Notes: generated by a model from the letters alone, not told the origin. Shown: positions 8,625 to 56,719, numbered from the stretch's first letter. The stretch: 64,000 nt of DNA from an uncultured Gammaproteobacteria bacterium (GCA_964504365.1 CAZDDW010000002.1:53246-117245); one strand, 5' to 3'. Numbers and translations are program-made.

Positions 8625-8681
8625 GTCAAGCCTAAATAGCCTAATTAAGGCTTGACAGAACTGGTATTTTGTGTTAACTTA
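8625..8681. promoter_or_regulatory. Symmetric divergent promoter
   Basis: TGTCAAGCCT (8625-8634) and AGGCTTGACA (8648-8657) are reverse complements, and each arm contains a TTGACA -35 box. On the plus strand, TTGACA is followed by 18 nt and then TGtTAACTT. On the minus strand, TTGACA is followed by 17 nt and then TGgTAGTCT. Confidence 0.6.
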
Positions 8682-8722: not shown

Positions 8723-9739
8723 ATGGTCCCTGCAGACGAACGAGAAACGATCGATGACGAGACTCAGATGGATATCAGGGTCGTAGAAGCGAGTATCAGC
8801 CCCTGGGTTGATGATCTACGAACCAATTTCCCTTACTGGCCGGATGAGGATGACGGTGAACAGCCACCAACGTTCACCCAGGCCAGGGAAGAGGACGCCG
8901 CGGATGAACGCTTCCGAGAGCTTTGCGATGATTCTGGTCTAGCTGCTGATCTGATCATCATCGTTCTGGAAGGGATCGATACGGACCTGGAAACCGATCC
9001 TGTGCCGGAAGACCTGTTCCAGGAAGCTCGGAATCGGATCGAGGCAGAAGACGACAGCCTCACCGTTCAGCTGATTGACATTGCTCTGCGCTACCTCTTG
9101 TACACGGATTCGAACAACGAAGACGACAACAGAAAACACGCAGCAGCAATCAAGGATGCCTTGAGTCAGCCGGAAGCATCAAAGGAGGCGAATGAACCTG
9201 CGAAAACCGCAGCTGAGCCGAAGACTCCGGCCAAGCCCGGGGTTCCACCCAAGCCTTCGATGCCTGGAGAAGGTGGTGCAGAAGGTGGTAGGCCCGGAGC
9301 TTTGCGGAAGACTGATGGTACGCAAGAGCAGCCTCCTCCTCCCGAGAAGACTCCACCGGAGGCAACTACTCGAACTACTCAGCCGGCAGAACCGCCACCA
9401 CCGACGCCCCCAGATGGCTCGAGCGATGACGACCTCAAGGCAGAGCCACGCTACGTAGAGCTGCTTGCAGCTGCACAGCGAAACATCACCAAAGCAAGAG
9501 CTGGAGAAGCTCCGGCTCAGCTCTGGCTGGATGTGACTGTGTCAGACTTGCGTAAGGGAACAGGCGTTGGTTCACGAACCCACCCCAACCCGATTTACGC
9601 AAGACTGGCTGCTGATGGGACGACCATCCGAACAGGCTTCGATCACAGGGACAAGAACGCCCGTGCCAGAAGCCTTCTGGTCCGAGAAATCCAGGCTCTG
9701 GTCACTCAGGCCGGCCTGAAGATCAACCGCCTGCGTTAG
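8723..9739 (+). CDS. Hypothetical acidic protein with a Pro-rich linker (islet 1)
   Basis: 338 aa with a GGAGGA SD site. The N-terminus is acidic, the middle has PPKP/PPPPTPP low-complexity sequence, and a C-terminal domain follows. A TGCCGCTCAGC...GCTGGGCGGCA hairpin lies downstream at ~9750-9780. Confidence 0.6.
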   Translation: MVPADERETIDDETQMDIRVVEASISPWVDDLRTNFPYWPDEDDGEQPPTFTQAREEDAADERFRELCDDSGLAADLIIIVLEGIDTDLETDPVPEDLFQEARNRIEAEDDSLTVQLIDIALRYLLYTDSNNEDDNRKHAAAIKDALSQPEASKEANEPAKTAAEPKTPAKPGVPPKPSMPGEGGAEGGRPGALRKTDGTQEQPPPPEKTPPEATTRTTQPAEPPPPTPPDGSSDDDLKAEPRYVELLAAAQRNITKARAGEAPAQLWLDVTVSDLRKGTGVGSRTHPNPIYARLAADGTTIRTGFDHRDKNARARSLLVREIQALVTQAGLKINRLR

Positions 9740-42543: not shown

Positions 42544-43761
42544 TTAATAGTCTACTAAATAATTTAATGGGTTAACTGGAATACCGTTTAAACGGACTTC
42601 AAAATGAAGATGAGGTCCAGTTGAAAGACCGGCTCCTGAAGTTCCTGGCATTCCACCTGATAATGCAATTGTTTCTCCTCGCGAAATAAATTGATCAGCC
42701 GAGACCATTGGTTTTGACAAGTGAGCGTATAACGTGGCTATTCCATTCGTATGAATTACCATGATGTAATTCCCATAAAGCCGCCCTTGCTTAACCCAAG
42801 CTACGTATCCTGGGGCTGGGGCCGTGATTGGGGTCCCTTGCATTTGAGGAATATCGATACCTGAGTGCTCAAACAAATGACGGAATGGATAGGTTGGATC
42901 ATGATAATAGGCCGAGATACCACGATAATTTGGATCTAACGGCCAAGACAAAATCGTTGCGTCTCCATAGATATCAGAATCAAGAATCTTGTTCTCGATT
43001 TCGTTTTGCAGTGCTCCGATCTGCTGTTCAATATACTGTTCCTCCTGACTAAGTTCGTACAACAAAGAAGCAAACTGCGCTTCTGAGTAATTCACCTCAG
43101 CCACCAAAACCTCCTTGGCACTGACCTCGTTTTCAAGCAACATTATTTCCCTTTCTAGTTCTTCTTCTAAATCCACCAATCGCAACAAATTCTCTTCTTT
43201 AACAGTCTGCTGCTCTTCTAAACGATCCCGCATCCCTTTTGTATCATCTAGGGTCGCAGCCAAATCGCTGTTCACCTCTTCAAGATAACGCAACTGATCA
43301 AATAACTCAGAAAAGGAATCGGTTCCAAAAACCAACTCCAATAAACTATTTTCATCATATTGGTTCATGCGTCGTAAAATCGAGGCCAACAACTCTTTCT
43401 GTACTTCCAACTTTGCCTCAAGATCAAGGACCTCGGCTTCGATGGCATAAATTTCAAGCTCGGTTGTTTCCACTTCTAATTCTGTTGCTTCGATATCCAA
43501 ACCTGTTTTAGCAATTCTATTTTCTAAAATCGCAACCTCTGTTTCTAAAGAAATCGATTCAGCCTGCTTAGCGCTTATCTGCTCTTGATACGACTCAATC
43601 CGCCGATTTATCTGATCCAAATGAACTTTCTTTTCCTCAATCACCTCACTCAGCTCATTGACCTTCTCTGTTGTACCCTCCTCAGCAAAAACAAACTGCA
43701 TTGATCCCATTGGTAGGATCAATCCAGTTAAAATAACAAGCTGTATTAGTTTTTGTTTCAT
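42544..43761 (-). CDS. Coiled-coil M23/LytM-family peptidoglycan endopeptidase (EnvC-like)
   Basis: A signal or TM sequence, a ~250-aa coiled coil, and a C-terminal M23 domain with HxxxD…HLHFEVR motifs. Confidence 0.85.
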   Translation of the reverse strand: MKQKLIQLVILTGLILPMGSMQFVFAEEGTTEKVNELSEVIEEKKVHLDQINRRIESYQEQISAKQAESISLETEVAILENRIAKTGLDIEATELEVETTELEIYAIEAEVLDLEAKLEVQKELLASILRRMNQYDENSLLELVFGTDSFSELFDQLRYLEEVNSDLAATLDDTKGMRDRLEEQQTVKEENLLRLVDLEEELEREIMLLENEVSAKEVLVAEVNYSEAQFASLLYELSQEEQYIEQQIGALQNEIENKILDSDIYGDATILSWPLDPNYRGISAYYHDPTYPFRHLFEHSGIDIPQMQGTPITAPAPGYVAWVKQGRLYGNYIMVIHTNGIATLYAHLSKPMVSADQFISRGETIALSGGMPGTSGAGLSTGPHLHFEVRLNGIPVNPLNYLVDY

Positions 43762-45227
43762 TTAAGCGCTGTAAGAGCGTTTTTTAGACGTTTGAGCGTC
43801 TGTTCCCTCCCAAATACCCAAGCCAACTCAAATGGCCCAGGCGAAGCTTTCTGTCCGCTTAATGCAACACGCATAGGCCAGAGAACATTACCATTCGCTA
43901 GCCCCTTACTATCAATATACCCTTTTATCGCCTTCTCGACCAGTTCAACCGAGGCAAAATCCCCTTCTTCAAGTGATTCAATCAATTCAATCACACCCTT
44001 AAGATTTTGCACCGCATCATTTTTGTCTGCTTTTTTCCAAATCAAGATCTCAGGGTCCTCAAGCTTTAAATCTTCAACATACATATCAACCATATCAACG
44101 ACCTCATCCAGACGAACCATACGTTCTTGTTCAATTGACACTATCTTTTTCAACACCTCGGAATCAACACTCTTCCCTGCTCTTTCCAAAAACGGCTGAC
44201 ACAATTCAACTAACTGCTCAACACTTTTTTGACGAATATAATGCCCGTTCATCCAGTTCAACTTATCGATATCAAAAACCGCGCCTGAAGCGTTAACCTT
44301 TGAGAGGTCAAACAACTGAATCAATTCATCAAGTTCGTAAATTTCTTGATCTCCTTTTGGATTATATCCAAGCAAGGCCATGAAGTTCAACAGTGCTTCT
44401 GGTAAGTAACCCTTAGCCAAATAATCCTCTGCAGCAACATCACCCTGGCGTTTGGACAATTTTGACTTGTCTGGATTCAACACCATTGGCAAATGGGCAA
44501 ACACTGGCAATTCCCATCCGAACATCTGGTACAGCATGACGTGTTTCGGTGTTGAGCTAATCCATTCCTCTGCACGAATAATGTGAGAAATCTGCATCAA
44601 ATAATCATCAACAACAACTGCCAAATGATATGTTGGAAATCCATCCGACTTCATCAACACCTGATCATCAACCTCAGAATTATCGATTGTAACAGCACCA
44701 CGGACAACATCCTTAAAAGTTGTCTTCCCTTCTGGAACTTTCATGCGCACAACAAAAGCTTCACCAGCATCAACTTTCTTCTGAACCTCATCATCTGTTA
44801 GATCGCAACAATGCCGATCATACTTGGTTGGCATCTTTGCAATCTGTTGCTGCTTACGCATTTCATCCAAACGTTCCTTGGTACAAAAACAACGATATGC
44901 ATGGCCTTGCTCAAGAAGCTGATCTACATGCTGCTGATACAGCTCACTTCGCTCAGATTGAATATACGGCCCAAGATCACCACGCTGAACAATTTTATCT
45001 CCATCCAAAAACACACCCTCGTCGTAATCAACACCAAAGGTCTTTAAAATATTAACCAAATTCTCCATCGCACCCTCTACAAACCGCTCACGGTCAGTAT
45101 CTTCGATACGCAAAACCATTTGCCCTCCCTGATTTTTTGCGAATAAATAAGCATAAAGAGCACTTCGAAGGTTTCCAAGATGCAGATATCCTGTTGGCGA
45201 TGGTGCAAAACGAGTTCTTACTTTCAT
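43758..45227 (-). CDS. gltX: Glutamyl-tRNA synthetase
   Basis: RFAPSPTGYLHLGN (HIGH region) and KLSKRQG (KMSKS). Confidence 0.9.
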   Translation of the reverse strand: MKVRTRFAPSPTGYLHLGNLRSALYAYLFAKNQGGQMVLRIEDTDRERFVEGAMENLVNILKTFGVDYDEGVFLDGDKIVQRGDLGPYIQSERSELYQQHVDQLLEQGHAYRCFCTKERLDEMRKQQQIAKMPTKYDRHCCDLTDDEVQKKVDAGEAFVVRMKVPEGKTTFKDVVRGAVTIDNSEVDDQVLMKSDGFPTYHLAVVVDDYLMQISHIIRAEEWISSTPKHVMLYQMFGWELPVFAHLPMVLNPDKSKLSKRQGDVAAEDYLAKGYLPEALLNFMALLGYNPKGDQEIYELDELIQLFDLSKVNASGAVFDIDKLNWMNGHYIRQKSVEQLVELCQPFLERAGKSVDSEVLKKIVSIEQERMVRLDEVVDMVDMYVEDLKLEDPEILIWKKADKNDAVQNLKGVIELIESLEEGDFASVELVEKAIKGYIDSKGLANGNVLWPMRVALSGQKASPGPFELAWVFGREQTLKRLKNALTALK

Positions 45228-45970
45228 ACTGGCCTTATTTTACTCTTAATTACCAAATATGGGAAGACCACGACCGCGGTCCAGATGCGCTTGATCCGAC
45301 TTGGTTGTTTGATCAAACGGTAAAACCACTCTAAGCCCAAGCGGCGCATCAGACGCGGTGCGCGAGGCACATTGCCAGATAAGTAGTCAAAAGCACCTCC
45401 AATACCAGCGGCAACGCGTACGCTTGGCAAATGTTTTAGAAACGAAATGATCCAGCGCTCCTGTTTTCCATGCCCAAGAGCCACGAGTAAGACAGCGGGT
45501 TGAAAATTGATTATATCCCGTGGCACAGCTGGATTCATACTCCATTCCCCGTCCTTGAAAAATATCGGTCCGCCTGCATTTGCTCGAATCTTCAAAGTAG
45601 GATACTTGTCTTTTAGGATCGCTGCTGCTTTTTCGGCAGACTGATCAGATCCTCCGAGCAGAAACATTGACTGACTACGCTCAGCACAAATCTGAGCCAA
45701 CATCTGCATCAGATCGTTCCCAGTAATCCGTGGCAATGCTTCGTCACCCTGAAAGCGAGCAGCGAACTGTAGTCCCACCCCGTCGCAAATAGCCAGGTCT
45801 GCCTCGTTGATTATTGCCAAAAAGTCCTCTTGTTTCTGCGCAGCAACCACAAATTCCGGATTCGGCGTAACCACATAATGCTGTCGATCAGAATCCAAAT
45901 AAGACCGCAACGCCTCGATTACGCCCTTTTTGTCAATATTGCTGATTTTTACCCCAAGTATCTTAGTCAT
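45224..45970 (-). CDS. WecG/TagA/CpsF-family glycosyltransferase
   Basis: 248 aa; the N-terminal third matches the WecG/TagA family. Confidence 0.7.
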   Translation of the reverse strand: MTKILGVKISNIDKKGVIEALRSYLDSDRQHYVVTPNPEFVVAAQKQEDFLAIINEADLAICDGVGLQFAARFQGDEALPRITGNDLMQMLAQICAERSQSMFLLGGSDQSAEKAAAILKDKYPTLKIRANAGGPIFFKDGEWSMNPAVPRDIINFQPAVLLVALGHGKQERWIISFLKHLPSVRVAAGIGGAFDYLSGNVPRAPRLMRRLGLEWFYRLIKQPSRIKRIWTAVVVFPYLVIKSKIRPV

Positions 45971-48690: not shown

Positions 48691-49080
48691 TCAAGTCCTG
48701 GCCGGAGAAGTCCGAACCCGGGCACGGTGCCGATCGCTGAAGTGTTCAGCAATCTTGCGCACCCAGAACCAGTTGTCAGTTTGTGTACCGTCTTGAAGGA
48801 AGGCCCTATTGCCTTCAAAGAGCAAGTGCCCATGCTCGGCACAGAATTCCACCAGCTCGGTCAGCATGGCCATACCCGGCTCATTGGCCCTAATCGTGAA
48901 AGCGTCGACAAGCACTGCCTCGTCGGTTGGCAAACTCTCCAGCCGTCCGTTCCAGCGCTGGAAATCGAACTCGGCCTGCACTCGGTGCATGGCCGCGCAG
49001 ACCCGTGAGGATCGCTCACCCAAGTTGATCACGTAGCCGGTGTAAAAAATCTTGACTTTGGTTTTTTTGTCGTCGCTCAT
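48691..49080 (-). CDS. Hypothetical 129-aa protein (islet 4)
   Basis: High-GC ORF with an AGGGGGA SD. A downstream minus-strand terminator GGCCAGGA…TCCTGGCC+TTTTTTCTTT lies at ~48655-48690. Confidence 0.5.
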   Translation of the reverse strand: MSDDKKTKVKIFYTGYVINLGERSSRVCAAMHRVQAEFDFQRWNGRLESLPTDEAVLVDAFTIRANEPGMAMLTELVEFCAEHGHLLFEGNRAFLQDGTQTDNWFWVRKIAEHFSDRHRARVRTSPART

Positions 49081-49176
49081 TTAATCCCCCTAAAAGAACC
49101 AGTTTTGGTTTTACCATTAATAAACGCGCCTGTCAACCCATGTTGCAATATGCTAAACTGGATCAGAGGAGGAGTC

Positions 49177-49671
49177 ATGGTAACAACCACTAAACGAGAA
49201 GCTGTACGAGAATCTCTCGGGCCTCTGGAACGTGCTCAACAAGCGAAGCAGGAACAACTTGCTCGTGTAAGAGCAGTATACGGTAAAGACGTTTCACATA
49301 TGGCCGAAGCGGCGGCAACAGATGTGTGGTACACGGCACTACTGAAGTTGAAGATGGTTGGTCCGTTCAGACGGATTGTGTTCGATGCTCTGAGGAGAAA
49401 CGATCCAAGACCAACAAAGGTTGTGGTCACAGGCAATTTCGGTGATGTGGTGATCACGTTATCTGATGACGAAGTTCGTTTCCAATACTACGGCGACCTG
49501 GAATTCCTCAAGCTTTCGTTCTTTCAAAAGACCTACCTACACAAACCAGGTCCTGAACGACCCTTGCGGATCGACTTCTCGGTTCCGGTCAAACCGTATC
49601 TTGACACAATCCATGACAACGATTTCGGTCGCGCCATGGACAGACTCAACAGCGGACACTGTCCTATCTAG
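49177..49671 (+). CDS. Hypothetical 164-aa protein (islet 4)
   Basis: AGGAGG SD 6 nt before ATG. An upstream TGTCAAC…TGcTAAACT promoter lies at ~49126-49155. A CCAGCTCAccTGAGCTGG+T6 terminator lies at 49675-49699. Confidence 0.55.
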   Translation: MVTTTKREAVRESLGPLERAQQAKQEQLARVRAVYGKDVSHMAEAAATDVWYTALLKLKMVGPFRRIVFDALRRNDPRPTKVVVTGNFGDVVITLSDDEVRFQYYGDLEFLKLSFFQKTYLHKPGPERPLRIDFSVPVKPYLDTIHDNDFGRAMDRLNSGHCPI

Positions 49672-49752: not shown

Positions 49753-52395
49753 ATGTTACCAAACAACTTTACACACAAATCTCAAGAAGCTATTCAAAAT
49801 GCGCATAACCTAGCTGTTGAAAACGGTCAGGCAGCGATCGAGCCGATTCACTTACTCGCTTCCCTGCTCTCTCAGGACGACGGCGTGGTTATTTCTATTT
49901 TTGACAAAATGAATCTTGATATCGCCACCTTGCGGGGCGAGGTCGACACAATTCTGGATACGCTACCTAAGCAAGAAGCCATGGGTGGTGGCGGTATTGG
50001 CCAGGTTTACTTGTCACAACCAATGGCTCGTGTTTTTGCTACAGCCAACAAAATTGCCAAACAGTTCAAGGACGAATACATTTCAACTGAACACCTGTTC
50101 CTTGGTTTAATGGTCGACAAGAATGTTAAAGGTTTGTTGGAACGTTCTGGTGTAGTTGAGGCTGAGGTGTTAAAAGTTTTAAAAAAAATTCGAGGAAATC
50201 AGAAAGTGGATTCACCAGAACCAGAGTCTAAGTATCAGGCGCTGGAAAAATATTCAATGAACCTGACTGAAATGGCGCGACAAGAAAAACTGGATCCAAT
50301 TATTGGGCGCGACAAAGAAACTCGTCGTCTGATGCAGATCCTGACTCGCCGAACCAAGAACAACCCGGTCCTGATTGGTGAAGCAGGTGTTGGTAAAACT
50401 GCGATTGCCGAAGGTCTTGCTCAGCGAATTGTTGCTGGTGACGTTCCTGAGTCATTGAAGAATAAAGAACTAGTCGCTTTGGATCTTGGTGGTATGGTTG
50501 CTGGAACAAAATATCGTGGTGAGTTTGAGGATCGTTTGAAAGCCGTGATTAAAGAGATCGAAGAATCTGAAGGACAAATTCTGTTATTTATCGATGAGCT
50601 ACATACTTTAGTTGGAGCTGGAACTACAGAAGGCGGATCGCTTGATGCATCTAATTTACTCAAACCCGCTCTGGCTCGTGGAAAGCTGCGTACCATTGGC
50701 GCGACCACGCTCAAGGAATATCAGCGGCACATTGAAAAAGACCCAGCATTTGAACGTCGCTTCCAACCAGTGTTAGTTGAAGAACCTTCTATCGAGGATA
50801 CGATTGCTATTCTGCGTGGAATCAAAGACCGCTATGAACTGCATCACGGAATCCGCATTGCTGACGCAGCCATTATCGCTGCAGCTGAACTGTCCGCCCG
50901 CTACATTACTGACCGCTTTTTACCGGACAAAGCCGTTGACCTGATCGACGAGGCTGGCTCTGCTTTGCGTATGGAGATTGATTCCATGCCTGAGGAGCTT
51001 GACCATTACAAACGTGATGCTATGCGTCTTGAGATCGAGCGTGAGGCTTTGAAAAAAGAAGAAGACAAGGATTCTAAAGCTCGACTTGAAGAGATCGAAA
51101 AGCAACTAGCGGATCTGAACGAACAGTCTCGTGAACTGGAAATGAAATGGAAGAATGAGAAAGATAAGATCGCCGAAATCCGAGCCATTAAAAAAGCCAC
51201 TGATGAACTTCGAGCAATGGCTGACATTGAGGAACGTCGCGGCAACCTGCAGAAAGTTGCTGAAATCCGCTACAGCAAGATCCCGGCGCAGGAAGAAAAA
51301 CTGAAAAAGACAGAGGCCGAACTAGTTAACATGCAAAAAGATCGCGGTTTACTGAAAGAAGTTGTTCAGGATGAAGATATCGCCACAGTAGTATCCCGCT
51401 GGACCAACATTCCTGTTTCAAAAATGCTTGAATCAGAACTGACTAAACTGACGCGCATGGAAGAAGTGTTGTCAAAACGAGTTATTGGTCAGTCTGAAGC
51501 GATTGAAGCCGTCTCAAACGCTCTACGTCGCTCTCGAGCCGGTATTGCTGAAGAAGGCCGCCCAATCGGATCATTCCTGTTTTTAGGACCTACCGGAGTC
51601 GGAAAGACCGAACTTGCGAGAACTTTGGCCGACTTCATGTTCAACGACGAAAGCGCATTGGTACGTATCGACATGTCTGAGTACATGGAAAAGCATGCTA
51701 CTTCGAAAATTATTGGATCGCCTCCAGGTTATGTTGGATATGAAGAAGGCGGACAGCTAACTGAGATCGTTCGGCGCCGACCGTACAGTGTTATCTTGTT
51801 TGACGAGATTGAAAAAGCTCACCCAGATGCGTTTAACATGTTGCTTCAGATTTTGGACGAGGGGCACCTGACAGACGCCAAGGGTCGCAAGGTAAACTTC
51901 AAAAATACTGTTATCATCATGACTTCAAACATTGGATCTGACGCGATCTTAGAAATGACTACCAAAGGTGGCGGCGAGCTTGGGTTCGAATCAGATCGCA
52001 GCGATTCACCAGAACGCGATGAGGAGCGTATGCGCGAACGAGTGATGGGTATGCTCACAGAACACTTCCGCCCTGAATTCCTGAACCGGCTAGATGAAAT
52101 TACTATCTTCCACTCATTGTCTGAAGATAACATCAAACATATTGTTGAACTGCAGCTTGATCGGGTAGCCAAGCGCTTGCAAGAGCGGCGCAAGATCAAG
52201 ATCAAGATTACTGATGCGGCCAAAAAGCTGCTGGCAGAAAAGGGCTACGATCCCGCATTCGGTGCTCGCCCACTCAAACGCGTCATCCAAACTGAGATCT
52301 TAGATGCCCTGGCCAAGAGAATCATCGCCTCTGAGATCGAAGAAGAATCGACGATCACAATCGATGCGAGGAAAGAACAGATCACTATTTCATAA
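49753..52395 (+). CDS. clpB: Chaperone ClpB (AAA+ disaggregase)
   Basis: Two AAA+ modules ([15 protein letters not shown] and [11 protein letters not shown]), a middle coiled-coil domain, and an N-terminal Clp-N repeat. Length is 880 aa. Confidence 0.95.
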
Positions 52396-52405
52396 ATAAG
52401 GATAT

Positions 52406-52438
52406 TAAAAATCCGCAGGTGTGTACCACTTGCGGGTT
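52406..52438. terminator. Bidirectional intrinsic terminator between clpB and the minus-strand islet-5 gene
   Basis: AAAAATCCGCAGGTGtgtaccCACTTGCGGGTTTT. The hairpin has A/T runs on both sides. Confidence 0.6.
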
Positions 52439-52813
52439 TTAGATTCCGGACTTGAACTCGACCGGGACCTGGAAGACGTGGTTGGGCTCGATGTCGCGAG
52501 CTTCCATCCAAGCCTTGAGGGCTCTGAGCTGCAACCTGACAGGGTCATGGCCGCAATAGTAAGTCGTATCGCCTCTTACCTGAACCTCGCAGTCCATTGT
52601 CAGAACTAATTCCAGATCTCCATTGGATCGACGAACATGTACCACACCTTCTGGTCGTTTATCTTCGTCAACGATGAGCTGAAAACTCAGACCATGCTCT
52701 CGCACTCCCGCTTCACTGACTGGAATGATGGCTAGTCCAGTTTGCTCGGTCAAGTCACCCTTGGCCTCGGGTGAAAACACGATAGCCACGAAACCGATTT
52801 TCTCAACAGTCAC
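52439..52813 (-). CDS. Hypothetical 124-aa protein (GTG start), islet 5
   Basis: AAAGGA SD before GTG; high GC. Confidence 0.5.
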   Translation of the reverse strand: MTVEKIGFVAIVFSPEAKGDLTEQTGLAIIPVSEAGVREHGLSFQLIVDEDKRPEGVVHVRRSNGDLELVLTMDCEVQVRGDTTYYCGHDPVRLQLRALKAWMEARDIEPNHVFQVPVEFKSGI

Positions 52814-52919
52814 AGTGTTTCCTTTCTCTGTGGATTGTAATGGTTCAATGAATTAGACCTTAACAATCCTGTTCAGACTTGTCAAAATAAAAGACTCCGC
52901 AGTGATGCGGAGTTTTGAG

Positions 52920-53771
52920 TTACTCCTCCTCGCCGTTGTCGTCTTCTTCATCCGGATCCGGCTGTTGCTGGATCGGTCCTTCTGGCTGAACAAAGAAGAC
53001 TGGCCTGGCTTCTAGCTCGGTCGCCGGAATCCCTTCGTCCTGCAACAACTTTAGTAAAGCCGATTCGAACTCACCGAAAGTTGCGTGCACAAATTTGGGA
53101 CGAAAGCGCTCCTCAACGGAGTCAAAGAACTCCAGATGATCCCAAATATCTCCTGCCGGAAACATGTATGAGAACCGCGGATGACTACTTGTCCCTATAC
53201 CAGCACTAAATCGCACTGGCACTGTCTGGATCAACAGGCGGGCCACCGGTTCATCAATCCCACCTCCTGAGAACTGGGGGTACTTTAAATCAACGATTAG
53301 TTGTCTGCCCCCTGCCAGGAAACAGCGCAAATCAAATTTGACACCGGAAAGCAATATTGAGAAAAAGGACATTCTCCTGTCATCTTCATAATCAGGACTG
53401 CACCTATCCGATATGACGTAACGACCTCGTTCCCTGCTCAGTGATGGTAAGCGGAGCTCGTTCCTTTCGACACGCTTCCCGTAATACCCACGCAACGTTT
53501 TACGGTTTCGATCAAGTAGCGCTTGTGCCACCTGATCTTTATAGGTTGGCCGACCCTTGGCAGCCACACCCTTATTCATCCAACGCCAATCAGCTTGTAG
53601 CTGCTTGAAATCAGGTGGCAAGAGTCGACAGTCGGCTGGCACAAAATCAGGATCAGCATGCATCCTTTTCAGGTGCTCAACGCTTCGCGACAGCAAGAGC
53701 AACTTCTCGTAGAAGTCACGCATACCACACTGCGCGATATCGCGCCAAAGTTCGGAAGTAAAAAGAGCCAT
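52920..53771 (-). CDS. Hypothetical 283-aa protein with an acidic C-terminal tail (islet 5)
   Basis: GGAGATG SD. A terminator ACTCCGCA…TGCGGAGT+TCTTTTATTTTGACAAG lies downstream on the minus strand. Confidence 0.55.
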   Translation of the reverse strand: MALFTSELWRDIAQCGMRDFYEKLLLLSRSVEHLKRMHADPDFVPADCRLLPPDFKQLQADWRWMNKGVAAKGRPTYKDQVAQALLDRNRKTLRGYYGKRVERNELRLPSLSRERGRYVISDRCSPDYEDDRRMSFFSILLSGVKFDLRCFLAGGRQLIVDLKYPQFSGGGIDEPVARLLIQTVPVRFSAGIGTSSHPRFSYMFPAGDIWDHLEFFDSVEERFRPKFVHATFGEFESALLKLLQDEGIPATELEARPVFFVQPEGPIQQQPDPDEEDDNGEEE

Positions 53772-54049
53772 TTCATCTCCAGGCTTGTTGGAATTATCAC
53801 CGGTCTTTTTTCAAAGACGCATTGCCCTACTAGCCAAGCAGGATCGGGACACCCCAAGCTCCATTTCAGAGCTACATCCGGGGAGGTTCCTACAGCCCAC
53901 CTCTATTTCAGAGGTGTTGTCACATGCACCACGCACCAAGCTGTATTCTGCACTTTTCAGCACATCTCTTCTGGATGACATGAAGAGGACTTTCACCTTA
54001 ACAACCCAAACCTATTTCGTCAAAAAAAATCTCCGCATGGGTTGCGGAG

Positions 54050-54340
54050 TTAGAGTGCGTTGCTCGGGGTCTCGCCGGCGCGGCCGAGCTTGAGGCGACT
54101 TGCCGGCGGACCGGTACGTGGCGGACGCAGGTCGTCCTGTCCGATCTGCAGGCTCATTGCCTGAGCTGCACGATAGCCCGTGAAGACGATGTGGTCACGC
54201 TCACTCCGGATAGTGATCTGCTTGACGTGTCCGTCATGCTGAGCCTGGCTAGCCTGGAGCTGGGCCTGACCAACACTCTCGTCCTCAGTAACGGTCGGGT
54301 TGTTATCACCAAAACGGTAGGTCTCGATTCTATATCCCAT
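54050..54340 (-). CDS. Hypothetical 96-aa protein (islet 5); its start overlaps the stop of the upstream gene by 11 nt
   Basis: Coupled to the 170-aa ORF. A terminator CTCCGCA…TGCGGAG+T8 followed by GACGAA lies downstream. Confidence 0.5.
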   Translation of the reverse strand: MGYRIETYRFGDNNPTVTEDESVGQAQLQASQAQHDGHVKQITIRSERDHIVFTGYRAAQAMSLQIGQDDLRPPRTGPPASRLKLGRAGETPSNAL

Positions 54341-54842
54341 CTTCCCTCTCCTGCTCGTCCGTCATGGAAACGAGTTGTGGTGTGATGCTGAGTACCTCAG
54401 TCAGCTCCTCAGCGGTGCGTGTGATCGGTGATGGCTCACCGAGCTTGGTCTTGAGCTGCTGGATGATCCAGGCAAGCATATCGCTGGTCTGTGGCAGACA
54501 GAAATCGACTATCACACCTGATTCAAGTTGAACCGGCCTGGATGCACGGACCTGGAAATGGCGTTCTTTCTGTATCAAGACAACAACCAGATCATGGTCA
54601 GAATATTCGAGCACACCGATGACGATCGGGATGGCCGAGGTACGACCATTCTCTTCGATCTGGTCAACTTGTAGGTACGGCACGTCCATCAACTGCCAGG
54701 TTCGAATCATGTCTTCTCTCCAAGCCAGACGCACCATGAGCGACTCGGTGATCGCCCCTAGGGGCACCGGCTGATCAGTCTTTGGAAGTGTTCCTGGGAA
54801 CATGATCGCTCCTTGTGAAGGTTCGGATGAATAGCATGCCAC
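54330..54842 (-). CDS. Hypothetical 170-aa protein (islet 5)
   Basis: High-GC ORF and the first gene of an overlapping pair. Its start may lie at an internal Met. Confidence 0.5.
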   Translation of the reverse strand: MACYSSEPSQGAIMFPGTLPKTDQPVPLGAITESLMVRLAWREDMIRTWQLMDVPYLQVDQIEENGRTSAIPIVIGVLEYSDHDLVVVLIQKERHFQVRASRPVQLESGVIVDFCLPQTSDMLAWIIQQLKTKLGEPSPITRTAEELTEVLSITPQLVSMTDEQEREDGI

Positions 54843-55059
54843 AGATTTTCCAGGTTGTCAACAGGCCGGCCACTGGATGACTCAGGGTTTTGTTTGTGGA
54901 AGCGTTCGGCCCATTCGTGGTTAAGTCTTGGTTGGTGTCAGGCCTCACTCGGCGTCGGCCGGAACATTTAAGGTTAAGGGGTACGTTATATGACAGGCCT
55001 GATAGTCCGGCCTCCGATCGTTCCACAAATCAAAACCCTTCGTCATAATATTCTGTCGG

Positions 55060-55275
55060 TCAAAAAAAGTGGCCGGCCATAAACAAAGGACGAGGATATT
55101 CTTTTTGTGAGAACACGTGGAGCCGGGCCCACATCTTGCCATCAATAACTACCATTGGTTCTGGTCCCGGCGGAACATCGAGCGAGGCCCAGAGACTATT
55201 CTCTTTTTTCAACAACGTTCTGGCCGAGCGCTTCTCACAAAAATAATGTCCGAGTCCCCCATGGCCGGCCAGCAT
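55060..55275 (-). CDS. Possible small 71-aa ORF at the islet-5 edge
   Basis: High-GC ORF with weak support. GGCCGGCC octamers occur at 54869, 55070 and 55263. Confidence 0.25.
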   Translation of the reverse strand: MLAGHGGLGHYFCEKRSARTLLKKENSLWASLDVPPGPEPMVVIDGKMWARLHVFSQKEYPRPLFMAGHFF

Positions 55276-55324
55276 GTTATATCAACTGGCCTAAACAGCT
55301 AAAATCTGTTAGCATTTAAGCACT

Positions 55325-56719
55325 ATGAAACAAATACTAACAGGAATCATTTCGCTAACTTTAGCGTTTTCACCCTTGGCTCCGGCGTTAGCCAGCACAG
55401 ATTTTAACGCCAATTTTTTAATTTCTGATGACGAACTAACGGATGCTTTTTCCATGGACCGCAATGACATTCAACGCATTCTCGACAAAGGCGGACTAGC
55501 TGATTACTTCACCGAGGACATTGATGGACGAACACGCCACATTGCTGACATCATCTGGTGGACAGCACAGATGCGCGGAATCAGTCCAAAAGTATTACTA
55601 GTAATGCTACAAAAAGAGCAGAGTCTGATCGAAGACCCAACACCTTCGCAGGACCAACTAGATTGGGCCTTAGGCTATGGAGTTTGTGATGACTGTACAC
55701 ACGATGATCCTGACATCCAACGCTGGAGCGGAATTTCAAAACAACTTAATTCTGCTGCTTTGCAGTTGAACGAGGGCTACCTGCAGGACATTGAAGATGA
55801 TGGTTACACAGTAATGGGTTATGGCCCAGGTTTGACCAGCAGGATTGATGATGAGTATGTCACTTTTGCTAACGCAGCCACAGCAGCACTGTACACCTAC
55901 ACACCACACATTCACGGCAACGAGTTATTTGTCACTATTTGGAATCGATATTTTGGAATCTACTATCCATCTGGATCTCTTTTGCAAGACAACACTACTG
56001 GCGGTGTTTACTTAATTAAATTCGACGAGAAGCGACCGATCACCTCACAGACCGCCCTGCTTTCTCGATATAACTCGGATCTGATTATCTCAGTTGACCC
56101 AACAGTACTCCAGACTTATGCTGATGGCGCGCCAATTTCTCATGCCAACTATTCCCTACTTCAGACACCAACTGGTGGCATTTATCTTCTAGTGGACGAC
56201 GTTATCAGACCAATCGCTAGCCAGGAAGCTTTTCGTTCTATTGGTTTTAATCCTGATGAAGTGATCGCTGTTGAATGGGAGGATTTGGCAGCCTACAGTG
56301 AAGGTGAAACGATTACTGAAGACAGTGCTTATCCAATCGGCACTTTGCTACAAAACTCAACCACAGGTGGTGTTTATTTTGTTGAGAATGGAATTAAACA
56401 ACCACTGATGTCACGTGATGTTTTAGATAATCGTTTCGCTGGTTGGGCTATTGTTCCTATGTCTCCAGAAGAATTAGATGAATTCGAAACCGGTGATGCA
56501 GCCAAGTTCTTTGACGGGACATTGGTGAAGGGTCCAGATCCAGATGTATATGTAATCTCCGAAGGCGAGCGTCGACCAATCCCAAGCGAAGAAGTCTTCC
56601 TTGGACTTGGTTGGAAATGGGAAAACATTATCGTCACTGACGAACGAACTCTTGAGCTACACCCGCTTGGTGAAACGGTCTATATGAGTACTGACGAAAT
56701 TGAAGCTGCTTCGAATTAA
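55325..56719 (+). CDS. Secreted protein with four tandem ~45-aa repeats
   Basis: A signal peptide is present. The repeats are LLQ(D/T/N)xTTGG(V/I)Y(L/F)(I/V)…(K/R)(R/Q)PI.S…F…G(F/W), at ~aa 215-260, 265-310, 335-380 and 400-445. Confidence 0.65.
   Translation: MKQILTGIISLTLAFSPLAPALASTDFNANFLISDDELTDAFSMDRNDIQRILDKGGLADYFTEDIDGRTRHIADIIWWTAQMRGISPKVLLVMLQKEQSLIEDPTPSQDQLDWALGYGVCDDCTHDDPDIQRWSGISKQLNSAALQLNEGYLQDIEDDGYTVMGYGPGLTSRIDDEYVTFANAATAALYTYTPHIHGNELFVTIWNRYFGIYYPSGSLLQDNTTGGVYLIKFDEKRPITSQTALLSRYNSDLIISVDPTVLQTYADGAPISHANYSLLQTPTGGIYLLVDDVIRPIASQEAFRSIGFNPDEVIAVEWEDLAAYSEGETITEDSAYPIGTLLQNSTTGGVYFVENGIKQPLMSRDVLDNRFAGWAIVPMSPEELDEFETGDAAKFFDGTLVKGPDPDVYVISEGERRPIPSEEVFLGLGWKWENIIVTDERTLELHPLGETVYMSTDEIEAASN

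Follow-up and report, generated by a model that had tools for sequence, protein, structure and literature searches.

A conserved, structured leader RNA accompanies a new protein family in a variable locus of a Candidate Phyla Radiation bacterium

We analyzed a small gene islet located at positions 52400-55320 of a 64,000-nucleotide stretch of DNA assigned to an uncultured Gammaproteobacteria bacterium (GCA_964504365.1, CAZDDW010000002.1:53246-117245). This whole stretch is called the window below, and all coordinates follow its numbering. The islet carries minus-strand open reading frames that we named after the length of their products in amino acids (g124, g283, g96, g157 and g71). Its main feature is the segment that precedes g283 (positions 53772-53994, minus strand), a structured 5' leader RNA of about 220 nt. 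The leader is conserved, its helices covary, and it is strictly linked to g283, being present at all eight distinct genes of the g283 family. It is a new and well-supported structured RNA coupled to a new protein family of the Candidate Phyla Radiation (CPR). The host is an ultra-small CPR bacterium, probably belonging to the Uhrbacteria, and the islet is an old, variable, fast-evolving and lineage-restricted accessory locus of this CPR lineage rather than a recent import. We propose, as a rather probable reading, that this lineage-specific islet contains a leader+g283 module in which the leader would control the translation of g283 in cis, in response to an effector that would more likely be a protein.

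The spacer that separates g283 from g96 (53772-54049) had been described in the original prediction as 270 bp of non-coding DNA. It indeed contains no conserved open reading frame (ORF), but it holds a promoter-like site as well as the structured RNA. The minus strand of positions 53760-54060 was aligned with the 264-bp spacer found upstream of the g283 homolog of L009. The latter is one of five comparison loci that were analyzed for the clpB/464-aa gene arrangement described below (L009, L011, L015, L016 and L017); six others contain further members of the g283 family (L018, L019, L021, L022, L023 and L027). Between the window and L009, nucleotide identity reaches 83% in the leader, compared with 79% in the coding sequence (CDS) of clpB, 76.5% in that of the 464-aa protein gene, 64.5% in that of g283 and 62% in that of g124. 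On these alignments, no other DNA of the locus is as conserved as the leader, which is tied to g283 and not to the g157/g96 pair.

A covariance model (R1) was built from the window and L009 copies only. It retrieved full-length leaders immediately before the six other genes of the g283 family, in L022 (E 2e-11), L021 (E 4e-11), L019 (E 1e-10), L018 (E 4e-6, the contig ending within the 5' part), L023 (E 1e-4, 24 bits) and L027 (E 3e-12), the last one being a prospective test, predicted from a weak protein match. All eight matches have the orientation of the gene, and their ends fall at the start codon or just before it. Promoter-like sites are located upstream. The same model detected no copy in the g283-less loci L011, L015 and L016, and no second copy in the window. 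An Rfam scan of the spacer, as the original prediction had advised, gave no match, yet the spacer encodes a structured RNA: none of the 4227 models of Rfam 15 matched the whole window at the gathering threshold, and nothing appeared in the spacer at E<=10 over positions 52380-55340. Scanning the window for tRNA and tmRNA returned nothing relevant, the leader sequences share no conserved small ORF, and we found nothing relevant in the literature on CPR riboswitches or RNA motifs.

In the RNA numbering used here, position 1 corresponds to window position 53994. The fold starts with P1 (8-13/24-29), whose loop includes UCAUCC, and P2 (31-36/41-46), and continues with a three-way junction made of P3 (51-56/98-103), a variable P3a and P3b (79-85/91-97). 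A long-range helix, P7, pairs GGAA (105-108, in a conserved AGGAA) with UUCC (202-205) and encloses P4 (112-115/140-143), with its bulge GGAUG(A/U) and the hairpin P4a, as well as P5 (153-158/164-169) and P6 (177-182/187-192). P7 covaries, GGAA/UUCC being replaced by GAAA/UUUC in L022 and by GAAU/AUUC in L027. When each spacer is folded alone by minimum free energy (MFE), the same architecture is obtained.

Repeated TTTCAGAG motifs had also been reported in the spacer. Two copies are present, but the word is not enriched in the window (6 occurrences against 4.0 expected) and the copies are parts of hairpins, since they form the loop and 3' arm of P3b and P4a (CUCU-GAAAU-RGAG on the minus strand). 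In these two hairpins, the differences between the window and L009 are compensatory: CACCUCU-GAAAU-AGAGGUG becomes GGUCUCU-GAAAU-AGAGAUC, and AGCUCU-GAAAU-GGAGCU becomes GGCUCU-GAAAU-AGAGCC.

MAFFT aligned the leaders too poorly, RNAalifold predicting 18 pairs only, and covariance-model alignments were used instead. In the alignment of the eight sequences, 91.8% of the 415 pair cells are standard pairs, whereas this value falls to 40-46% when the partners are slid by 1-3 columns. Changes on both sides are observed in 38 of the 57 pairs, compared with 6-12 in the slid controls, and no shuffle out of 500 reached any of the five pairing measures. RNAalifold finds the same helices on this alignment, P3a and P7 included, with 61 pairs of which 43 are compensatory. 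Moreover, 28 cells contain G-U and 10 contain A-C, an excess that favors the sense strand.

The sequences also point to a probable pseudoknot between the P1 loop and the P4 bulge (CAUCC:GGAUG), which is kept in six of seven sequences and shows a compensatory case in L021 (UCGUC:GACGA). The terminal loops of P3b, P4a and P6 are GAAAU, GAAAU and GAAA in the window and L009, ACGA in all three hairpins of L022, ACGA, ACGA and ACGC in L021, and AGGA, AGGA and GGUA in L023. Two other interpretations of these sequences were dropped. The GAAAU loops as mimics of the tRNA-Phe anticodon loop were discarded by eye, as the loop register does not fit, and CsrA-type GGA sites were seen in L023 only.

The g283 gene (52920-53771, minus strand) encodes the founding member of the family. 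A first homology search, covering 5.8 billion protein clusters, provided a single relative for g283 (P0002) and a single one for g157 (P0005), each 50% identical. A g283 profile was then run with HMMER against 1.84 billion representative proteins, and this full scan added only six further members (P0006, P0008, P0009, P0010, P0012 and P0011), which brings the family to eight distinct proteins; a third search, with a seven-sequence profile, brought no new one. Identity is 22-28% for the five of these six that are included in alignment A3. P0011, at first a weak protein match, is about 26% identical to the family profile, and hhalign confirmed its membership (98.5%). The protein consists of a basic helical N-domain, with an isoelectric point (pI) of 7.8-10.1 in the seven members aligned in A3 (P0011 was left out), and of an acidic alpha/beta C-domain. 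The acidic tail noticed in the original prediction does exist, the protein ending in ...PDPDEEDDNGEEE, but it is specific to the window and is not conserved in the homologs. An AlphaFold2 (AF2) model of g283, with a predicted local distance difference test (pLDDT) score of 70.7, displays the helical N-domain and the alpha/beta C-domain, and Foldseek found no match for it at E<0.01 in PDB or BFVD. An HEPN-like Rx4-6H motif was considered in g283 and dropped, its arginine not being conserved. In P0009 (L021 6001-6081; GCA_030674435.1, JAUSIX010000002.1), the CDS as annotated includes the leader helices P5, P6 and P7 as well as a GGAG Shine-Dalgarno sequence. The true start of this protein is probably Met27, with the annotated start placed 26 codons too far upstream.

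A long 5' spacer precedes every member of the family, and the six further members have unrelated neighborhoods. In L018, a Vut_1 (PF02592) gene comes after the family gene, in the same orientation. The family gene lies between DoxX and an AAA_18 gene in L019, beside a GTPase gene and a cold-shock gene in L021, and between HU and an extracytoplasmic function (ECF) sigma factor gene in L023. L022 is a short contig with no other gene. In L027 (946-2727), a more distant relative, the leader+g283 module, together with a 159-aa gene, is found between WecG and GluRS, whose genes overlap directly in the window (43758-45970). Because the module is at the WecG/GluRS site in L027 and in a clpB-proximal position in the window, it is found at distinct sites among related genomes. 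The leader RNA and the g283 gene constitute a self-contained module, both being together wherever the g283 family is found.

How could this module work? In the window, 9 nt separate the end of the leader fold from the GGAG Shine-Dalgarno sequence of g283. Across the family, four of the eight sequences have 9 nt between the 3' strand of P7 and a GGAG downstream of it, and a fifth has 8 nt between this strand and GAGG. We did not find any terminator between the leader and g283, nor any U-tract terminator after P6. The folded leader would therefore abut the ribosome-binding site (RBS) in the 5' untranslated region (UTR), which suggests a control of g283 translation in cis; since the fold adjoins the RBS and no terminator follows P6, translational control would be preferred to transcription attenuation. 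In several sequences, the P1 loop is complementary to the Shine-Dalgarno/start region, for example to a GGAUG that includes the start codon in L022. Concerning the effector, a protein, plausibly g283 itself, appears somewhat more likely than a metabolite or another small molecule, because the terminal loops change together between RNAs, because the linkage to one family is strict and because the N-domain of g283 is basic.

Several points weigh against this proposal. The complementarity between the P1 loop and the RBS is only suggestive, as shuffled loops match the observed energy in 1.5-48% of trials, and no conserved anti-Shine-Dalgarno or terminator switch was found in the leaders. The compensatory case of L021 is the single one for the pseudoknot, which is broken in L027. 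The RNA set amounts to eight sequences only, aligned by fitting to a covariance model, which inflates pairing. The co-variation of the loops comes from few and partly related sequences and has exceptions, P4a in L019 and P6 in L023. That g283 binds RNA is inferred, and its AF2 model, which has medium confidence, gave no fold match. Finally, the promoters are consensus matches only, and both the promoters and the start of transcription are inferred from them.

More tentatively, one could imagine that the leader and g283 form an unrecognized and portable RNA-protein system of CPR bacteria, in which three like-looped hairpins would dock an oligomer of g283, the RNA being an antitoxin, a cofactor or a part of a ribonucleoprotein (RNP) endowed with an activity of its own, or else that the leader is the aptamer of a new riboswitch class. 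Two more precise versions of these ideas can be confronted with the data. The leader could be a metabolite or ion riboswitch with the pseudoknotted fold as its aptamer, g283 being an enzyme or a transport-related protein for the ligand. Its place in the 5' UTR near the RBS, its covarying helices and the presence of a long-range helix and a pseudoknot are in line with such a role, as is the Vut_1 (PF02592) gene that follows the L018 homolog, this family including transporters of queuosine precursors. However, the leader is tied to one uncharacterized protein family and to no pathway, and it matches no Rfam family. Nearly all its conserved nucleotides are used in helices, in the pseudoknot or in P7, so that no obvious conserved pocket is left, and no expression platform was recognized. 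In addition, the three hairpin loops vary together from one lineage to another, as ligand pockets typically do not. We thus regard a riboswitch as rather unlikely.

The leader could also be a functional partner of g283, within an RNP, a type III-like pair of RNA antitoxin and protein toxin or an RNA-guided module moving as a unit. Supporting this idea, RNA and gene are together in 8/8 cases despite unrelated neighborhoods and differing insertion points (clpB-proximal in the window and L009, WecG/GluRS in L027), the module is patchy among close relatives (found in the window and L009, missing from L011 and L016), the RNA is more conserved than the g283 protein, and three like-looped hairpins could bind a protein multimer. 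On the other hand, the leader lacks the tandem repeats of known type III antitoxins, and g283 resembles neither a nuclease nor ToxN/AbiQ, reverse transcriptases, IS110 or TnpB. A distinct RNA species is not indicated, as no terminator lies between the RNA and the gene. No consistent defense or mobile-element genes lie nearby, and no phage matches were obtained. Such a partnership is in our opinion unlikely, and it is highly improbable that the conserved spacer acts as DNA, its palindromes serving as operator sites for a regulator in place of a structured RNA. It is true that the hairpins are inverted repeats and that palindromic operators can also show paired changes. Nevertheless, ten nested helices and long-range pairs covary here, the ratio of G-U to A-C is 28 to 10 on the sense strand, the topology is kept despite a near-complete divergence of sequence (24 bits in L023), and the element lies downstream of a promoter-like site, within the 5' UTR. 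Cis control of g283 translation by the leader remains our preferred interpretation.

The islet as a whole is flanked by clpB (49753-52395, plus strand) and by the gene of a 464-aa signal-peptide protein (55325-56719, plus strand). Its GC content is 0.50-0.60, compared with 0.44-0.46 in the flanks, and its proteins are 28-72% identical to the homologs of relatives, compared with 85-97% for the flanking proteins. The original prediction of a minus-strand block of four or five genes holds for four of them, g124 (52439-52813, 124 aa, pI 5.0), g283, g96 (54050-54340, 96 aa) and g157 (54330-54803, 157 aa, acidic, pI 4.5). The fifth, g71 (55060-55275, minus strand), is discussed below. For g157, the ORF 54330-54842 (170 aa) was given a corrected start, the ATG at 54803, which is preceded by an AAGGAG Shine-Dalgarno sequence. 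The gene calls on eleven identical metagenome contigs agree with this choice, and so does the N-terminus MFPGTLP shared by g157 and its homolog.

These genes had been presented as orphans, which is true in that no family, PDB-sequence or (for g283 and g157) fold match could be found. It does not hold strictly, as sequence comparison reveals diverged homologs of all four in related genomes. Scans against Pfam, PHROGs, PADLOC and NCBIfam gave no match above noise for the five islet products or the distant g283 homologs. PDB sequence-profile searches with the four families (g124, g283, g96 and g157) gave chance-level matches only, such as that of g124 with antibody heavy chains, which was rejected as due to a ...TYYC... 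motif. In none of these resources did we find a confident homology to ordinary metabolic enzymes. Structure prediction, also recommended in the original prediction, was carried out for g283 and g157. For the latter, the AF2 model (pLDDT 69) contains a long helix, a beta-sheet and two helices, with a C-terminus of low confidence, and has no Foldseek match in PDB at E<0.01. A tblastn search with g283 and g157 against 50,697 phage records gave no match, and the islet proteins have no paralogs within the window.

The clpB/464-aa synteny is present in L009, L011, L016, L015 and L017, with differing gene sets. L011, whose ClpB is 97% identical, contains only a g157 homolog (50%) and, after a 10-nt gap, a g96 homolog (72%). 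In L009 (ClpB 90% identical) the islet comprises ten genes, including homologs of g124 (46%), g283 (50%), g157 (28%) and g96 (40%), and six genes separate the last two. L016, whose record is labeled Candidatus Uhrbacteria, has a g96 homolog (35%) followed by small proteins common to L009, without homologs of g157, g283 or g124, and the islet of L015 is reduced to two unrelated small ORFs. The sole detected homolog of g124 is a 127-aa protein encoded downstream of the g283 homolog in L009. Homologs of g157 were seen in L011 and L009, the latter not beside that of g96. With its conserved C-terminal motif TGPPxSRLxLxRAG, g96 is the most widely kept gene of the locus. As the homologs are found at this locus even when ClpB identity is down to 90%, the cluster must be old.

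Some further features of the locus are worth mentioning. In L009 (7509-9736), four paralogous membrane proteins of about 125 aa, with 2-3 hydrophobic segments and 20-43% mutual identity, are interleaved with the islet homologs; no such protein is encoded in the window. Upstream of clpB, the window ORFs 48691-49080 (minus strand) and 49105-49671 (plus strand) are GC-richer and display a divergence like that of the islet, their homologs in L009, L011 and L016 being 29-40% identical when flanking genes reach 80-97%. The 464-aa protein is 83-95% conserved among relatives and belongs to no Pfam or NCBIfam family. Finally, the L015 contig (CAYZPO010000066.1) comes from a metagenome-assembled genome labeled 'uncultured Gammaproteobacteria' and shares with the window a clpB/464-aa/Memo/PriA synteny, with 64-85% protein identity. 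It is thus probably mis-binned or mislabeled CPR DNA.

Regarding transcription, a promoter-like site for g124, TTGACA-N14-TGTTAAGGT (52857-52885, minus strand), fits the islet motif with 0 mismatches and abuts a predicted intrinsic terminator after g283 (ACTCCGCA-TCAC-TGCGGAGT plus a T-tract; 52884-52913, minus strand). The promoter-like site for the leader and g283, TTGACG-N14-TGTTAAGGT (53995-54023, minus strand), also matches the motif and would start transcription at the 5' base of P1. It is preceded by a putative intrinsic terminator after g96, CTCCGCA-ACCCA-TGCGGAG plus T8 (54023-54049, minus strand), whose T-tract runs into the -35 box. The original prediction had defined a terminator form consisting of a hairpin, a T-tract and TTGAC. 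This succession is indeed seen at two sites (52913-52894 and 54049-54031), but TTGAC would be the -35 box of the promoter of the next unit and not a part of the terminator, T5GAC not being enriched in the window (8 against 5.6 expected). L009 keeps the leader promoter (TTGACG...TGCTAAGGT) and has the same motif upstream of its g124 homolog. With at most one mismatch, TTGAC-N15-TGnTAAGnT occurs seven times in the window, against 0.37 expected, at 8652, 18440, 19199, 21095, 22480, 52857 and 53995, each time in a GC-rich islet (7/7). The GC-rich islets may thus share one promoter type or sigma specificity, and the one studied here would consist of small units that are transcribed separately, every one of them having a TTGAC-N15-TGnTAAGnT promoter and an intrinsic terminator of its own. 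Between the convergent clpB and g124 genes, we read in the sequence a terminator-like hairpin, CCGCAGG...TTGCGGG, with an A-run and a T-run on either side (52410-52440). It appears to be a bidirectional terminator for both genes, and L009 has an equivalent hairpin with a T-run.

The 11-nt overlap reported between 54330-54842 and 54050-54340 is real (ATGGGATATAG) and does not depend on the choice of the g157 start. The original prediction saw in it the sign of a two-component module such as a toxin/antitoxin, a view that our results do not support. A type II toxin-antitoxin (TA) system or an obligate two-component module would agree with two small overlapping genes on the same strand, the Shine-Dalgarno sequence of g96 being within g157, with the acidic nature of the upstream product (pI 4.5), with the adjacency of the pair in the closest relative, L011, and with a C-terminus of g157 (TAEELTEVLSITPQLVS) that looks by eye like a helix-turn-helix. 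However, neither protein matches anything in Pfam, PADLOC, PHROGs, NCBIfam or PDB sequences, g157 has no Foldseek match in PDB, and its C-terminus is modeled at low confidence. More importantly, the partners are not co-inherited, as they are six genes apart in L009 and g96 is found without g157 in L016. In these two loci, a small membrane protein follows g96 instead. We therefore consider such a module improbable.

Upstream of g157, the original prediction had located three copies of the palindromic octamer GGCCGGCC. The copies are real, but their coordinates were off by 0-5 nt, the correct ones being 54864, 55071 and 55263. The octamer is found four times in the window, against 0.31 expected, a number reached in none of 100 shuffles. 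The fourth copy (9709-9716) lies inside another GC-rich islet, and its flanks do not resemble the elements described hereafter. The three copies bound and center an insertion of about 400 bp (54864-55270): the intergenic region between g157 and the 464-aa protein gene measures about 116 bp in L011 and L017, and the extra 400 bp or so of the window fall exactly between the first and the last octamer. No insertion is present at this intergenic position in L011, L017, L009, L016 or L015. The insertion comprises two elements, A (54864-55078) and B (55071-55270). The interior of A is 74.5% identical to the reverse complement of B over 157 columns, with a score of 73, whereas shuffles score 23.9 +/- 4.5 (0/500 reach 73) and the direct orientation scores 25. 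Inverted repeats of 33 nt and 26 nt lie inside the elements, and their hairpins have MFE values of -95.7 and -80.9 kcal/mol. From this sequence organization, the insertion is best described as two inverted copies of a hairpin element resembling a miniature inverted-repeat transposable element (MITE) or, equivalently, as one large palindrome centered on the middle octamer. It would be recent. It is located between divergent promoters, 2 nt upstream of a TTGACA box, in the promoter region of g157. The octamers at the two ends may represent a target-site duplication or belong to the element. These two adjacent, inverted copies are the only ones seen in the 64-kb window and the fetched loci. The weakness already attributed to the 71-aa ORF is also explained in this way, as g71 coincides with element B and has no family match, and the homologous element A does not retain this ORF (no tblastn match was obtained there). 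The sequence comparison thus indicates that g71 is most likely not a gene and probably a spurious call.

One may also wonder whether the high GC content and the orphan genes reflect a recently acquired foreign island, a prophage remnant or an integrative element. The contrast in GC with the flanks, the patchy gene content among relatives and the MITE-like insertion would speak for it. But the presence of homologs at the same locus where ClpB is only 90% identical indicates an old cluster, there is no integrase, tRNA or att-like repeat, and neither PHROGs nor tblastn returned phage matches. The other islets of the window have a raised GC content and the shared promoter motif too, and both features are retained in relatives. 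A recent foreign origin accordingly has little likelihood.

The CPR, or Patescibacteria, represent a large share of bacterial diversity, and to our knowledge hardly any of their RNA biology, and only a minority of their small lineage-specific genes, has been characterized. The leader and g283 provide a concrete and testable RNA-protein pair, which could yield a new class of regulatory RNA or a new RNP, and their linkage would offer a first clue to the function of g283. As they share the TTGAC-N15-TGnTAAGnT promoter, the GC-rich islets may form a co-regulated, fast-evolving gene set, which bears on how these episymbionts adapt. Our analysis also removes an unsupported toxin-antitoxin annotation and a spurious ORF.

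Several parallels can be drawn with known systems. Like MITEs and palindromic intergenic repeats of the Correia, ERIC and RUP types, the elements upstream of g157 are non-coding, strongly self-complementary units of about 200 bp with a short repeat on their flanks. They lie between divergent promoters and are missing from close relatives. They differ from them by the two adjacent inverted copies, the only ones seen in the window and the fetched loci, and by a boundary repeat that is the palindromic octamer GGCCGGCC. As in type II TA operons, g157 and g96 are small, overlapping and co-oriented, with an acidic upstream partner, but neither is homologous to a toxin or antitoxin family, their homologs are apart in L009 and only that of g96 is present in L016.

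Three comparisons concern the leader. Type III TA systems of the ToxIN type also have a structured RNA directly upstream of a protein gene, the two being always together. Unlike them, the leader is a single complex fold of about 220 nt in which the two GAAAU hairpins do not represent tandem units, there is no terminator between it and the gene, and g283 is unrelated to ToxN/AbiQ/CptN. Large pseudoknotted riboswitches and related elements (cobalamin, glmS, T-box) resemble it by their size, their multi-helix junctions, their long-range pairing or pseudoknot, their location in the 5' UTR and their strong covariation. In contrast, the leader matches none of the 4227 Rfam models, accompanies a single protein family, has no recognized conserved unpaired pocket or expression platform, and its loops co-vary as a set. 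The last parallel is with autogenous mRNA leaders, such as the ribosomal-protein leaders and the thrS operator of E. coli. The g283 leader matches no such Rfam family and, with about 220 nt and some ten helices, is larger and more complex than most of them, and g283 has no known fold, its role as a binder being assumed. However, like these leaders, it is a structured 5' UTR placed immediately before the Shine-Dalgarno sequence, with repeated similar hairpins, a strict link to one gene family and no terminator before the gene.

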